Part shown: positions 41,283 through 47,220 of the stretch, piece after piece
Position numbering within the stretch: the first letter of the stretch is position 1
How the letters are laid out: the number at the start of each line of letters is the position of its first letter
Assembly: GCA_965226495.1 (NCBI GenBank)
Contig: OZ245365.1
Coordinates: 1,376,001 to 1,440,000, forward strand
Source: Candidatus Marinacidobacterales bacterium
GTDB taxonomy: Bacteria; Acidobacteriota; Vicinamibacteria; Marinacidobacterales; DATDRI01
DNA length: 64,000 bases
Reading direction: 5' to 3'
Notes under the pieces: model-generated
Seen by the model: only the letters and a program-made list of their open reading frames with translations
Told to the model about the DNA's origin: nothing
The model's database searches: none
Position numbers and translations under genes: made by a program

Positions 41283-41404
41283 GCAAAAAGCTTAGTGGCT
41301 TTGATTTAGATCAGGAGCGCCCCTTTTCGAGCTATTCTACTGATAGTAAAGGACATAATTGGCGTGGCAACAGGTCGGTTTTCTGGCTGGGGAACCGAGC
41401 CTCA

Positions 41405-41433
41405 TTGACAGCTAGCTTCACCTAGCCCATAGT
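41405..41433 (+). promoter_or_regulatory. Sigma70-type promoter of archease-rtcB (near-leaderless)
   Basis: TTGACA-17-CATAGT, 8 nt before the GTG start, no SD. Confidence 0.6.
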
Positions 41434-41441
41434 CTGTTTCG

Positions 41442-41855
41442 GTGCCCTACCGAGTGCTGGACCACACGGCCGACTATATGGTCGAGGTCGCGGCGGAAGG
41501 AAAGCCGGAGCTCTTCTCCGAGGCCGCGAGAGCCCTTTTCGACATCATCACCGATTTGGAAACGGTAGAACCGCGGGAATCGGTCTCGCTCAGCGTCGAA
41601 GCCGAAAGCAGCGAAGAGCTCCTAGTGTCATGGCTCACCGAGCTTCTCTTTCTGTATGAGGACCAAGGATGGTTGTTTTCTCGATTCGATCCAAGGCTAG
41701 TGGGAGATCATCGGTTCGAAGCCGAGGCGTGGGGTGAGAAGCTCGATCCCGAGCGCCATCCCATTGATCGAGAGGTGAAGGGGGTGACGTACCATCGTAT
41801 GGCATTGGTGAGGCAGGGAAAACTCCTCAAGACGACGATCGTTTTCGATCTCTGA
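41442..41855 (+). CDS. Archease
   Basis: [22 protein letters not shown]-terminal FDL. Confidence 0.93.
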
Positions 41856-41875
41856 AGCGTTCGAAAGGATACGCG

Positions 41876-43327
41876 ATGACAAGCAAAGTCAAGATTCAGA
41901 AAATCGACGACAACCGTTGGCGTATCCCGAGGGAAGGGAAGATGCGCGTCGAGGGTTTGGTCTTCGCGAGCGAGGCTTTCGTCTCCACCCTTCGCGGAGA
42001 TCCCGCCCTCGAGCAAGTCGCCAACGTCGCCGAGCTCCCCGGTATCGTTGGCCGGTCCATCGCGATGCCGGATATTCACTGGGGCTACGGTTTCGCTATC
42101 GGGGGCGTCGCCGCTTTCTCGCCGGAAGACGACGGCGTGGTTTCGCCAGGGGGGGTGGGTTTCGACATCAACTGAGGCGTCCGGCTGCTGCGCTCAGGTC
42201 TGAGTCGCAAGGACGTGGAAGGAAAACTACCGGAGTTGGTCGACACTCTCTTTGCCAATATCCCAACCGGCGTCGGGGCGCACCGTCGCGACCTAAAGCT
42301 CCCTCAGTCTGAGTTGCGACGAGTTCTCACGCGAGGTGCGGGTTGGGCAGTAGCCAACGGCTACGGTACCGACACCGACCTCGAGTACATCGAAGAAGGA
42401 GGCTGCCTCGAAGGTGCGGATCCAGACGAAGTCAGTCCCCGCGCCATCGAACGCGGGCGTCCGCAATTGGGGACCCTCGGTTCGGGGAATCACTTTGGCG
42501 AGGTCCAGTACGTCGCGGAAATCTACGACCAAAAGCTTGCCGATGCGCTGGGTTTATTCCCCGGACAGGTGACGGTCTCGATCCACACCGGTTCCCGCGG
42601 GCTCGGCTATCAGGTGTGTGACGACTTCTTGAAGATCATGCTGCGCGCTTCCGCCAAGTACGGCATCGAGCTTCCCGATCGCCAGCTTTGCGCTGCACCT
42701 CTGACCTCTCCAGAAGCGAAGCGTTATCTTGGTGCCATGTCGGCGGCGGCCAACTACGCTTTCGCTAACCGGCAAATGATCACGCACTTGGTGCGCGAGA
42801 GTTTCGAGAGTGTGCTGGGGATTGGCCGCGGGAAACTTGACCTCGGTTTGGTTTACGACGTTTGCCACAATATCGCCAAGTTCGAGGAGCACCAGGTCGG
42901 AGGCAGAAAGAAAAAACTATGCGTCCACCGTAAGGGAGCGACGCGAGCCTTTCCGCCTGGCCATCCCGAGATTCCCTCCGCCTACCGCGCCGTCGGTCAA
43001 CCGGTCCTCATCCCTGGGGACATGGGACGCTACTCCTATGTGTTGGTAGGCACGGAGCGCGCCTATCAGGAGACATTTGGAAGTACGTGCCACGGTGCCG
43101 GACGGCGCATGAGCCGTCGCCAGGCGCGGAAGACCGCCGGCAAACGCGCCATCGTTCGCGAGATGGCAGAGCAAGGGATTATCGTCCGAGCCTCCGGGAG
43201 AGCCACGTTGGTGGAGGAGATTCCGGAGGCTTATAAAGATGTTGCAGAAGTCGTGGATGTGGTCGAGGGAGCAGGCATCAGTCGGAAGGTTGCGCAACTC
43301 CGGCCGATGGGAGTCATTAAGGGCTAG
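41876..43327 (+). CDS. rtcB: RtcB RNA 3'-P/2',3'-cyclic phosphate:5'-OH ligase, with in-frame TGA at codon 100 (candidate selenocysteine)
   Basis: [73 protein letters not shown]; both ORF halves are in one frame. Confidence 0.95.
42176..42216 (+). promoter_or_regulatory. Putative bacterial SECIS element
   Basis: Hairpin directly 3' of the TGA: GCGUCC/GGACGU, UGCG/CGCA, CUCA-GGUC-UGAG; AGGUCU top as in E. coli fdhF. Confidence 0.75.
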
Positions 43328-43524
43328 CCAGGTGCGCTGGACGATTCAGGGCACGCTGTGCGCAATCACGCACTAATTTCTCAGCGTCATCACCGGATCG
43401 ACCCTCGTTGCCCGACGTGTCATTAAGGGCTAGCCAGGTGCGCTGGACGATTCAGGGCACGCTGTGCGCAATCACGCACTAATTTCTCAGCGTCATCACC
43501 GGATCGACCCTCGTTGCCCGACGT
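43313..43524. repeat. Perfect 106-bp tandem duplication
   Basis: 43313-43418 = 43419-43524; the unit covers the 3' ends of rtcB and of the convergent permease. Confidence 0.92.
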
Positions 43525-44486
43525 GCCGGCAAATAGGAAGCTAAGCCGGCGACCAGCAGCAACGCAAGCGGCGTCACCGCAAACGCCATGGGGTCGATGG
43601 GTTGGACTCCGTAGAGTAGGGTTGCCAAGACTCGCGCCAAGATGAAAGTCATTGGCGCTCCGAGGGCCAAACCGGCGACGGTCAGAGCCAATTCTCTGCG
43701 CATGACTCCAGAAAGCAGGGAGGAACGCGGCGCGCCAAGGGCCATTCGGATCCCGAGCTCATGTGTTCTCTGTTTCACTACGTAAGAGAGAACTCCGTAG
43801 AGACCGAGGCCGGCCAGGAGAAGACCGAAAAACGCGAAGCACGCGAGCACCGAAGCGTAGAGCCGAGGGCGTGCGACGATGGTCGAGAATGCGGTGTCCA
43901 ACGAGGCGACCTCGTGAACCACGCGGGACTCCAATTCTCTCGAGGCCTTGCCAACTTGAACGGTGAGGGTTTCCGGCTCGACGGAGCCCCTAACTACCAA
44001 GCCCATCGAGCTCCAAGGAAATTGCGCGTGAGGTACGTAGACCTGAGGCTCAACGATCGCGGCTGGTCCGAAGTGGCTGATATCATCGACCACACCGACG
44101 ATCTCGCGGGCAAGTAGCTCGTCTCCGGTGAACGTGATGTCGAAGACGATGCGGCGTCCGATCGGATCCCGGTCGGCGCAGTGCCGGCGCGCGAGCTCAC
44201 GGCTGACGATCACCGCCGGTGTCGAATCGGCCGAGTCACGATTGTCGAACCATCGTCCTTCGATGAGCCGCGCCCCCAGCGTTTCGAAGAACCCCGGGCT
44301 AATGACGTGCGTTAACGCTCTTGGGGTTTCCGACGCCGGTGGTGTCGGATCTCCCTCCACCGCATAGTCTGCTCGGTCGGCTTGTTTGGCTACGCGAATT
44401 CATAAAGTAAGTGCAACACAGCTCCCGGATGAGGTGACCTGGAATGTGCCACGATTCCTCAAACAACCAAGAATGGGGACTCGCTA

Positions 44487-45506
44487 ATGACTTATTACCA
44501 GATCACCTCGGAAGAACGCTACACCATCGCGGCGCTGCGACGGGAGGGATTTTGCTCGGCCGAGATCGCGCGGCGCCTGGGGCGCCACCGGAGCACCATC
44601 TCGAGAGAGGTCAGGAGGAACAGCTCACCTAGTGATGGATGCTACCGGCCGAGCAAGGCCATCGAGAGAACGAACGGACGACGCTCGCGGTCTCGCCGGA
44701 ACCAGTACTTCACAAAGGCCGACTTTGCCCTGGTGGAGAAGAAGCTTAAGGCCGACTGGAGCCCAGAGCAGATCTCCGGCCACCTGCGCCTTCACGGCGA
44801 GCTCTCGATCAGCCACGAGACGATCTACACCCACGTTTGGCGGGACAAGGAGGCCGGAGGACATCTATACCGCCACCTTCGATGCTCGCCCAAACTTAGA
44901 CGCAAGCGCCACAACAGCTACGACAGCCGAGGCCGCCTGGCCGGGAAGCGTCACATCTCCGAGCGGCCGTCTTGTATCGACAAGCGCCGTGCCGTTGGCC
45001 ACTGGGAGATTGACACCGTGGTAGGAAAAGACGCGCCGGACTGCGTCACCACGCTCGTGGAACGAAAGACGGGCTATGCGCTGATCGGCAAACTGTCCGA
45101 CCGCAGCATGTTCGGCACTAGCCAGCGAACGAAGATGTTGCTCCGGCGGGTGCCGGATCAGGTCAAGACCATCACCGCGGACAATGGCACGGAGTTCCAC
45201 GACTACGAATCCGTCGAGGAAGCGACCGGCGTCAAGTTCTACTTTGCAACTCCCTATCACTCATGGGAGAGAGGCAGCAACGAGAACTTCAATGGATTGC
45301 TACGACAATACCTGCCGAAGCGCACCAGCCAAGCAGCGCTCACGCAACGCCACTGCGATGGTATCGCAAAGAAGCTCAACACACGGCCCCGCAAGAGGCT
45401 CGGTTACCGCACACCGGAGGAACGTTTCCATGGGCAAGAGGCTCGGTTACCGCACACCGGAGGAACGTTTCCATGGGAACTAACGAATGGTGCGCTTCAA
45501 ACTTGA
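44487..45506 (+). CDS. IS30-family DDE transposase
   Basis: STISRE, WSPEQI, GHWEIDT, TADNGTEF, WERGSNENFNGLLRQY, RPRKRLGY. Confidence 0.96.
   Translation: MTYYQITSEERYTIAALRREGFCSAEIARRLGRHRSTISREVRRNSSPSDGCYRPSKAIERTNGRRSRSRRNQYFTKADFALVEKKLKADWSPEQISGHLRLHGELSISHETIYTHVWRDKEAGGHLYRHLRCSPKLRRKRHNSYDSRGRLAGKRHISERPSCIDKRRAVGHWEIDTVVGKDAPDCVTTLVERKTGYALIGKLSDRSMFGTSQRTKMLLRRVPDQVKTITADNGTEFHDYESVEEATGVKFYFATPYHSWERGSNENFNGLLRQYLPKRTSQAALTQRHCDGIAKKLNTRPRKRLGYRTPEERFHGQEARLPHTGGTFPWELTNGALQT
45391..45477. repeat. 43-bp tandem duplication in the transposase 3' end
   Basis: gcaagaggctcggttaccgcacaccggaggaacgtttccatgg twice. Confidence 0.92.
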
Positions 45507-47220
45507 AGTCACACTACGTAAGGCACCTGCAGGGTCGCGCCAACGGAGCTCACTCCCGGGAGCCGTCTCACATCTCGTAAGAGATTCTCGAAGAACGCGG
45601 CCCTCCGCGCCGGTTCGGGGTACTGGCGGAAGGGCAACGAGACGCGCAGAGAAACGACTTCCTCGGGCTCGAAGCCGGGATCTTTCTGCTGGAGGAAAAT
45701 GAAGCTGTGGATCAACAGGCCGGCGCCGATCAGTAGCGGTAGTGCGATGGTGACTTGACCCACGACGAATAGATCCTTGAATCGACTACCCGCCGAGCTG
45801 GTGTTTTTTCCCGCCTCTCTGAGGAAGCCGGCGGCAATATCTCCCCTCAACATCAGGAAGCTTGGTAAGAGGCCAAAGACGACGGTCGACCCGAGGGCCA
45901 GCACCATAGTGAAGCTCAGAACCGCATGGTCCACGCCGAGCCCCTCCGCGCGCGGGAGACCTGGCGGTAGCAAGGTGGATAGCGCCGGAAGTACCCAGAG
46001 CACGATGGTCAGGGCCAGCGCGGCTCCGGCGAGAGCGAGCAACAGGCTCTCTGCCAACACTTGGCGCACCAGATCACCCCGGCCGCCTCCCAGCGCCAAC
46101 CGAATCGCGATCTCCCGCCGATCGCTCATGATGCGAGAGAGCATGAGGTTGGCGATGTTGGCGCAGGCGATGAGGAGGACGAACCCCACCGCGGCCTGGA
46201 GCAGGTAGAGTCCCGGCCTCGTTTGGCCGACGAAAGAATCGAGTACCGGTTCTACCGACACTTTCCACCCGGCGTAGGTCTCAGGGAAGTCTTGCGCCAG
46301 CCGATGGCTTACCACTTGAAGGTGGGTCGTTGCTGCCCCAATGGATACACCGGGCTCGAGTCGGCCGAAAGCGGTGTAGATCCGAAAGTGGGGATTGCTG
46401 GGATTTTCTCCCGCTCGCAAGGCGACCCATAGCTCGGGACTCGCCTCGCTTCCCAGATCGTGGCCGTAGATCTCCGGAGGAGCAACCCCGATCATGGTGT
46501 GATCGATTCCACCGAGGTTGAGCACTTGACCCAGCGCGCCGGCATCGCCGCCCAGTCGCTCGAGCCAGAACCGGTGGCTCACCACGGTGAGCGGCAGACT
46601 ATCCGCGGCCTCGTCTTCCTTGCCAAAGAATCTCCCGGCGGCCGGTCGAACGCCGAACACGTCGAAGTAGTTGGCGGATACGACTCCGTGGTTGACTTGC
46701 TCGTTCCACTGGCTGGTGCGCCACATGACACCGAAATAGGTCGAGAACGCGAGATCGGAGAAGCCTTCGCCCTCCCGCCGCCACGCGCGGGCCTCCGAGA
46801 CGGATGTCCAATCGAGATGGCCTTCGGCCTCGTTGAGGGAGAGGATGCGCACCAGCCGATCCGGATCTATGTAGGGGAGTGGGCGCAGCAAGATGGAGTA
46901 GACGATGCTTGAAGACCAAGGTGGTGGCGGAGATACCGAGGGTCAGGACCGAGACCACTCCTAGAGCGAAGCCGGGTGCCCTGCGGAGCCTTCGCCAAGC
47001 GTAGCGAATGTCGTTCGAGAGGAATCTCACCATGTCACTGTCGATTTGCAATAACTATACCGCGCGGAACCCTCGTGAACCGCCGAGAATCGCGGTCGAC
47101 CCGTCACCAACTCTGGTCGATGCCCGCCATCGGGACGACCGGCTCCCGAAAACGGACAGCTTTGTTCGCCGGCGGTTTTGACAACAACTTCCGCACCGGG
47201 GTATAGGGAAGCTTCACTGC

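Follow-up and report, generated by a model that had tools for sequence, protein, structure and literature searches.

The closest described relatives of the gene considered here are the archease-linked RtcB RNA ligases of Pyrococcus horikoshii, T. thermophilus and human (PF01139), whose GTP-dependent joining of RNA ends is assisted by archease, encoded in the same operon (PMC3973293). Cys98 of the P. horikoshii enzyme bridges both Mn ions, its loss (Cys-to-Ala) abolishes activity, and it has been observed oxidised to sulfonic acid (PMC9745838). A 2026 review, the main text of which does not contain 'selen', names this cysteine the Achilles heel of RtcB (PMC13247085; role and oxidation of Cys98/C122 in PMC9745838 and PMC13247085). 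The product of our locus shares with this group the fold (an AlphaFold model with Cys substituted at residue 100 has a pLDDT of 88.5 and a TM score of 0.96 to P. horikoshii RtcB 4dwq; 57% identity), the other metal and GTP ligands, and the archease operon (PMC3973293); it differs in that the codon for the bridging residue is UGA, followed by a hairpin, and a selenocysteine (Sec) form is unreported in the literature searched. The E. coli-type RtcB (DIGCGM motif) belongs to the same superfamily and has the same Cys ligand, at about 30% identity.

Among selenoproteins, the nearest systems are those decoded by SelB and an in-frame SECIS, such as FdhA and SelD, which likewise combine a UGA at a conserved Cys position with Cys orthologues, a G-loop hairpin and sel genes; the families catalogued with them are mostly thiol oxidoreductase-like, and none is named as an RNA ligase (PMC13188914). 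Sec has a low pKa and resists irreversible oxidation, and the same catalogue already includes proteins that are not obvious redox catalysts, namely a methylated-DNA methyltransferase and a SelO-like protein (PMC13188914). [NiFeSe] hydrogenases also have Sec for a Cys metal ligand, which has been linked to oxygen tolerance, and three [NiFe] hydrogenase sequences are predicted to carry a Sec that bridges two metals (PMC13582414); theirs is a redox Ni-Fe centre with a usually non-bridging Sec, whereas the RtcB centre serves nucleotidyl transfer and probably holds two Mn ions. The sequence-only reading of this locus had emphasised selenium as a metal ligand in a non-redox enzyme: the RNA ligase holds as new, while a bridging Sec and selenoproteins with no obvious redox role have these precedents. 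New here is the setting for Sec, namely an RNA ligase whose nucleotidyl-transfer site has two manganese ions.

RtcB is absent from Table 1 of the 2026 catalogue, which comprises 119 prokaryotic selenoprotein families, in keeping with the sequence-only reading, which did not count it among the classical ones, and 'rtc', 'ligase' and 'splicing' do not occur in the catalogue's main text (PMC13188914). The main texts of BSepDB (PMC13326102), deep-Sep (PMC12013277) and an Asgard study (PMC11227280), the supplements of which hold the family lists, are equally free of RtcB, ligase and splicing terms; no seleno-RtcB model appeared among the NCBIfam matches of June 2026, and no report of a natural Sec-RtcB was found in a literature search that covered few subscription papers. 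It is thus quite likely that Sec-RtcB is not yet described.

The rtcB locus and its in-frame TGA

The window, the whole 64,000-nt stretch of contig OZ245365.1 (positions 1,376,001 to 1,440,000, from a Candidatus Marinacidobacterales bacterium) that was analysed, contains the following features.

41405..41433, + strand: sigma-70-like promoter match (TTGACA, 17 nt, CATAGT) before archease; 10/12 matches, a consensus match only
41442..41855, + strand: archease gene, 137 aa, a known RtcB activator (PF01951, 138 bits)
41876..43327, + strand: rtcB gene, 483 aa with TGA as Sec; the sole rtcB found in the genome
42164..42166, + strand: Asp97, metal-2 ligand (P. horikoshii Asp95); invariant in 100/100 full-length TGA forms, role from PMC9745838
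42173..42175, + strand: in-frame TGA, codon 100, bridging-Cys position by alignment, putative Sec; TGA shared by at least 119 other loci
42190..42208, + strand: SECIS-like hairpin, 5-bp upper stem, loop GGUC at 42197-42200; fits the bacterial SECIS model of PMC13188914
42491..42493, + strand: His206, metal-2 ligand (P. horikoshii His203); conservation, role from PMC9745838
42584..42586, + strand: His237, metal-1 ligand (P. horikoshii His234); conservation, role from PMC9745838
42866..42868, + strand: His331, metal-1 ligand (P. horikoshii His329); conservation, role from PMC9745838
43091..43093, + strand: His406, guanylylated nucleophile (P. horikoshii His404); conservation, role from PMC9745838

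The only stop within the frame 41876-43327 is the TGA at codon 100, in the context FDIN*GVR, which under table 11 breaks rtcB into ORFs of 99 and 370 aa in one frame, just as the sequence-only reading had described. Translated with TGA as U, the 483-aa product scores 590 bits against the Pfam RtcB profile, for which the cut-off is 27, and it aligns end to end with the P. horikoshii and T. thermophilus structures. Residue 100 is placed at the DINCG cysteine, which in P. horikoshii is the metal-bridging Cys98, as had been proposed; that cysteine is missing here, and only its selenium analogue would fill the position, if the codon is recoded. A tblastn search of the same genome found no second rtcB. 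The intact archease gene to which the earlier reading had pointed ends 20 bp upstream, and archease immediately precedes rtcB at 96/140 TGA loci and 50/72 Cys loci.

Public contigs from three studies span codon 100 and agree with the window across it: X1 with 0 differences over 41400-43036, X5 with 0 over 41400-42435 and X15 with 1, at a place that the match does not display, over 41735-42584. These are contigs rather than raw reads, compared over 850-1637 bases, and one of the three sets may be the window's own source. In the RNA run X19, no listed contig crossed the TGA, the matches being short pieces of which one was exact at 41816-42022. A genetic code in which TGA is generally a sense codon (code 4 or 25) is ruled out, since RF2 is present in the genome and TGA is the commonest stop of its long ORFs (at least 400 aa; 703/1721).

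Several features of the surroundings deserve mention. Just 8 nt separate the end of the promoter match from the archease GTG (window 41405-41442), so a message started there would be leaderless or nearly so, and the hsp20-groES-groEL genes lead away from this gap in the opposite direction. The rtcB stop and a terminator-like hairpin are overlapped by a tandem duplication of 106 bp with identical copies (43313-43525); one copy is skipped in the contigs of all three DNA runs, which points to an artefact in the window assembly or to collapse in those contigs. Further downstream, a transposase-like ORF (44487-45506), which we take by resemblance to be of IS30 type, sits between two halves of an ABC-permease-like gene (43479-44360 and 45509-46891).

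Hairpins downstream of the TGA

The hairpin after codon 100 is support that the sequence-only reading had missed. We take its tip to resemble the E. coli fdhF element; the selD hairpin of the same genome has a similar tip, CAG-GUA-CUG, and a scan of the genome for the rtcB hairpin tip recovered rtcB and selD among 40 mostly chance matches. Bacterial SECIS elements present a loop starting with G, 16-37 nt downstream of the UGA, and the window hairpin, with a 4-nt GGUC loop, a 5-bp stem, a 21-nt spacing and a stability of -16.6 kcal/mol, agrees with all four rules of the bacterial model (PMC13188914) while encoding RSGLS. An Rfam search of 41800-43600 gave no SECIS family and a single chance match (E 9.8). 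Taken by itself, the hairpin is no more stable than its shuffles (z 0.06 and -0.15), and its case therefore rests on conservation.

The first G-in-loop rule is passed by 116/134 TGA genes versus 14/49 Cys genes, the 18 TGA genes that fail being nearly all of a Nitrospirota type, and when both hairpin shapes are allowed the figures become 134/139 versus 10/72; these rules were written after the TGA genes had been seen, for a gene set that includes a few duplicates. Stability relative to synonymous recodings is a test free of such after-the-fact bias. The mean z is -1.28 for 140 TGA genes and 0.0 for 72 Cys genes, a control stretch giving +0.04 in each group, and among 11 independent pairs an average of 6.7 agreed and 0.0 were opposed (median p 0.016). 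Compensatory changes point the same way, cells changed on both sides exceeding 500/500 shuffles for both hairpin types, although these counts may be inflated by kinship; for the short type, compensatory changes in 42 plus-strand loci surpass every one of the 500 shuffles on three out of five measures, but not on the other two, which count pair types.

The Nitrospirota type is a long hairpin of 14 pairs whose loop is A-rich, located +13 to +50 after the TGA in L035, L044, L050 and other Nitrospirota loci. Two of its synonymous third positions co-vary (CG in 11, GC in 5 and UA in 1 of 19). It mostly fails the G-in-loop rule that FdhA- and SelD-type elements follow, and resembles neither the consensus SECIS nor the selD hairpins of three Nitrospirota genomes (the selD regular expression read 3 of 4 loci). 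On its sequence features, this hairpin is a candidate second SECIS class.

Distribution, selenocysteine machinery and exchange with cysteine

The exact pattern G[VI]G[FY]DIN-TGA-G[VI]R occurs in at least 119 loci of the GTDB collection, and all 119 matches listed are RtcB, 49-71% identical to the query. By record name, the matches listed belong mainly to Thermodesulfobacteriota/Deltaproteobacteria (Desulfobacterota), Nitrospirota, Acidobacteriota and Myxococcota, with one or two loci each in Binatia, Eisenbacteria, Gemmatimonadota and Planctomycetota; viral contigs gave 0 matches. The downstream frame is complete (378-383 aa) in 88 of these 119, cut by the end of the locus in 28 and stopped early in 3. 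In samples not picked by trait, TGA occupies the codon in 5/6 same-family orthologues, in 10/109 same-phylum genomes that gave a match (the own genome counted; an eleventh flagged TGA lies elsewhere in the gene and is left out) and in 7/105 Nitrospirota genomes with a match (query genome included), such that Cys is still the majority form.

The part of the gene downstream of the TGA is under purifying selection. Thirteen other catalytic positions are invariant in 100/100 full-length TGA forms and 69/69 Cys forms, the metal ligands and the guanylylated His (D97, H206, H237, H331, H406) are all in place, and five of six family comparisons give a dN/dS of 0.04-0.12 for the sequence after the TGA, the sixth being saturated; upstream values are valid in 2/6 pairs only, four being out of register, probably by a one-codon gap, and dropped. 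A comparison of TGA and Cys forms for a Sec-specific second-shell residue found none, the most divergent columns being the hairpin-coded G108 and S110. No U occurred among 241 proteins from two homologue searches, a weak check since U is passed as C.

The genome of the window (G000) encodes selA, selB, selD and tRNA-Sec (selC), all over their cut-offs, and its selD carries an in-frame TGA of its own. The sole complete UCA tRNA scores as canonical tRNA-Sec at 70.9 bits. A second tRNA-Sec call, at 176351 (G000:C1:173953-176447), 2.4 kb downstream of the real gene, has most of the 3' part of that gene and a broken 5' end; it resembles an attachment-site remnant left by an element that integrated at selC. 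Across the first 50 of the at least 119 hosts, selB is over cut-off in 47; among the others, selA and tRNA-Sec occur in G388 and a partial selA in G351, and G378 has no match to selB, selA or tRNA-Sec and an rtcB with a local frameshift, which may reflect decay after Sec loss or an incomplete assembly. In 80 relatives, selA accompanies 14/14 genes with TGA and 54/66 without, and all 12 selA-negative genomes are without TGA at the site; the contrast is consistent, though weak, since selA is present in most of the relatives and the 66 are high-scoring matches rather than a random draw. Relatives with selA mostly keep Cys (54/68). The sequence-only reading had proposed a 483-aa Sec-RtcB and named four observations that would speak against it, namely TGC or TGT at the codon, a genome devoid of Sec machinery, TGA at this position in none of the homologues, and relaxed selection downstream; none of the four was encountered, and the proposal is supported.

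On a 169-row FastTree, built after masking residue 100 and the 18 that follow it, 21 changes between Sec and Cys are needed, 11 of them forced by well-supported branches; a 60-row IQ-TREE subset, hand-picked and enriched for switching pairs, needs 17, with 12 forced, and Sec forms a single clade in 0/200 bootstrap trees. As judged from the codon, the tree implies at least 11 exchanges between the two forms, the counts giving the number of changes rather than their direction. Two genomes, G006 and G153, have TGC together with an intact hairpin, selA and tRNA-Sec, and the position of G006 inside a Sec clade, hairpin kept, indicates Sec-to-Cys reversion there. That the hairpin comes in two shapes suggests two or more origins, or else a reshaped element. 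One Cys row of the larger counts and trees, L182, is from an unpublished genome (G185), and no conclusion depends on it. Neighbours on the tree that bear names, and the label of a homologue cluster, suggest that the host belongs to Acidobacteriota.

Other arrangements turned up in the course of the survey. A first metagenome pattern gave no match and is uninformative, as it demanded Gly at a position occupied by Ala in the E. coli type; a second gave 20 matches, 18 of which are not RtcB and two of which are E. coli-type RtcB with TGA, namely L252 (a metagenome contig, match at 1343-1371), which is full-length, has its TGA at that same Cys and lacks a G-loop hairpin, and L247, a partial case. 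These TGAs could be errors or of independent origin, and with only two such genes, both without the hairpin, Sec is seemingly confined to the archease-linked type. L197 (G254) is a long-branch RtcB with TGA at the site and selA in its genome and neither hairpin type. Five related genes, L268-L272, carry an intein exactly before the Cys/Sec codon, which is TGC or TGT in all of them, so that the residue is also the +1 splicing nucleophile. A short pattern for intein alleles with TGA at +1 drew many control matches and is too loose; the 30 loci read from among its matches comprised 16 plain Sec-RtcB and 0 intein alleles.

Decoding of the codon, predicted mechanism and significance

Taken together, these comparisons make it very probable that the gene encodes a selenocysteine-containing RtcB RNA ligase, a member of a real and probably uncatalogued selenoprotein family that numerous uncultured bacteria seem to share. 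Could the UGA instead be read with an ordinary amino acid, either Cys through a variant tRNA with a UCA anticodon or Trp by leaky suppression, yielding an ordinary or weakened RtcB? Some Deltaproteobacteria have Cys-delivering variant UCA-anticodon tRNAs, Cys functions at the site in most relatives, and Cys forms sit within Sec clades. That the only complete UCA tRNA of G000 is the canonical tRNA-Sec, the second call being a partial copy (host tRNAs were examined in G000 and five further genomes), and that the hairpin is associated with the TGA and selB with the hosts, render such read-through very unlikely.

Less probable again is a gene split on purpose or broken, whether as a 99-aa piece followed by a 370-aa piece restarted at GTG 42215 or as a spreading nonsense allele. 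Public protein sets do carry close TGA genes as exactly such pieces, 98-99 aa and 355-379 aa, and 3/119 listed loci have a further break; a split would, nevertheless, remove an essential bridging ligand, the Cys-to-Ala change of which abolishes activity (PMC9745838), and the stop at this codon, where read in the protein-based searches, is always TGA and never TAA or TAG. Purifying selection and invariant active sites across several phyla fit poorly with decay and rule out a pseudogene. An assembly or sequencing error at 42175, for which the one opening is that contigs rather than raw reads were compared, is close to impossible for this genome in view of the agreement of contigs from three studies; for the family it is refuted, given the TGA of 5/6 same-family orthologues and at least 119 other loci. 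The TGA at codon 100 is neither an error nor a mark of a pseudogene.

For the Sec-RtcB reading, we infer selenium insertion, ligase activity and a benefit of selenium along the following lines. SelB with Sec-tRNA would bind the hairpin and Sec would be inserted at codon 100; without selenium, RF2 would end translation at 99 aa, so that the full-length ligase would depend on selenium supply. Judging from homologous structures, the selenolate would bridge two metal ions, probably Mn2+, together with Asp97, His206, His237 and His331, and His406 would take GMP from GTP, aided by the adjacent archease. The enzyme would then join 2',3'-cyclic-phosphate or 3'-phosphate ends to the 5'-OH ends of broken RNA in a GTP-dependent manner. 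The least certain step is the gain. Cys-RtcB is inactivated by irreversible over-oxidation, which the Sec form may withstand, and Sec may also give the metals a ligand that is fully ionised; its low pKa and resistance to oxidation suit the site's known weakness. Alternatively, the swap may alter metal preference or be near-neutral. A heme-copper oxidase match occurs in 5/5 host genomes tested, all below the family cut-off, and other hosts are from anaerobic lineages, a mixture that displays no simple oxygen link. With such mixed lifestyles and frequent reversions, we give protection from oxidation only an even chance.

The broadest form of the proposal would make this the first natural Sec RNA ligase, with selenium bridging a two-Mn site, a third answer to RtcB oxidation beside the PYROXD1/thioredoxin of animals, RNA repair switched by selenium, a dozen or more Sec/Cys flips, and a non-canonical SECIS class in Nitrospirota; for all of these jointly, the balance is about equal between right and wrong. 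At the level of the family, the finding would add a widespread member to the selenoproteome and extend selenium to RNA repair, at a cysteine known to be where RtcB enzymes are vulnerable, among them the essential human tRNA ligase. The at least 119 genome records concerned hold a gene that pipelines tend to cut into two seemingly dead fragments. An oxidation-resistant RtcB would be of use as an RNA-ligation reagent. Finally, natural Sec/Cys pairs, such as G003 (TGA) and G006 (TGC, hairpin kept) on short sister branches, make the question of why Sec is used rather than Cys testable at a non-redox metal site.
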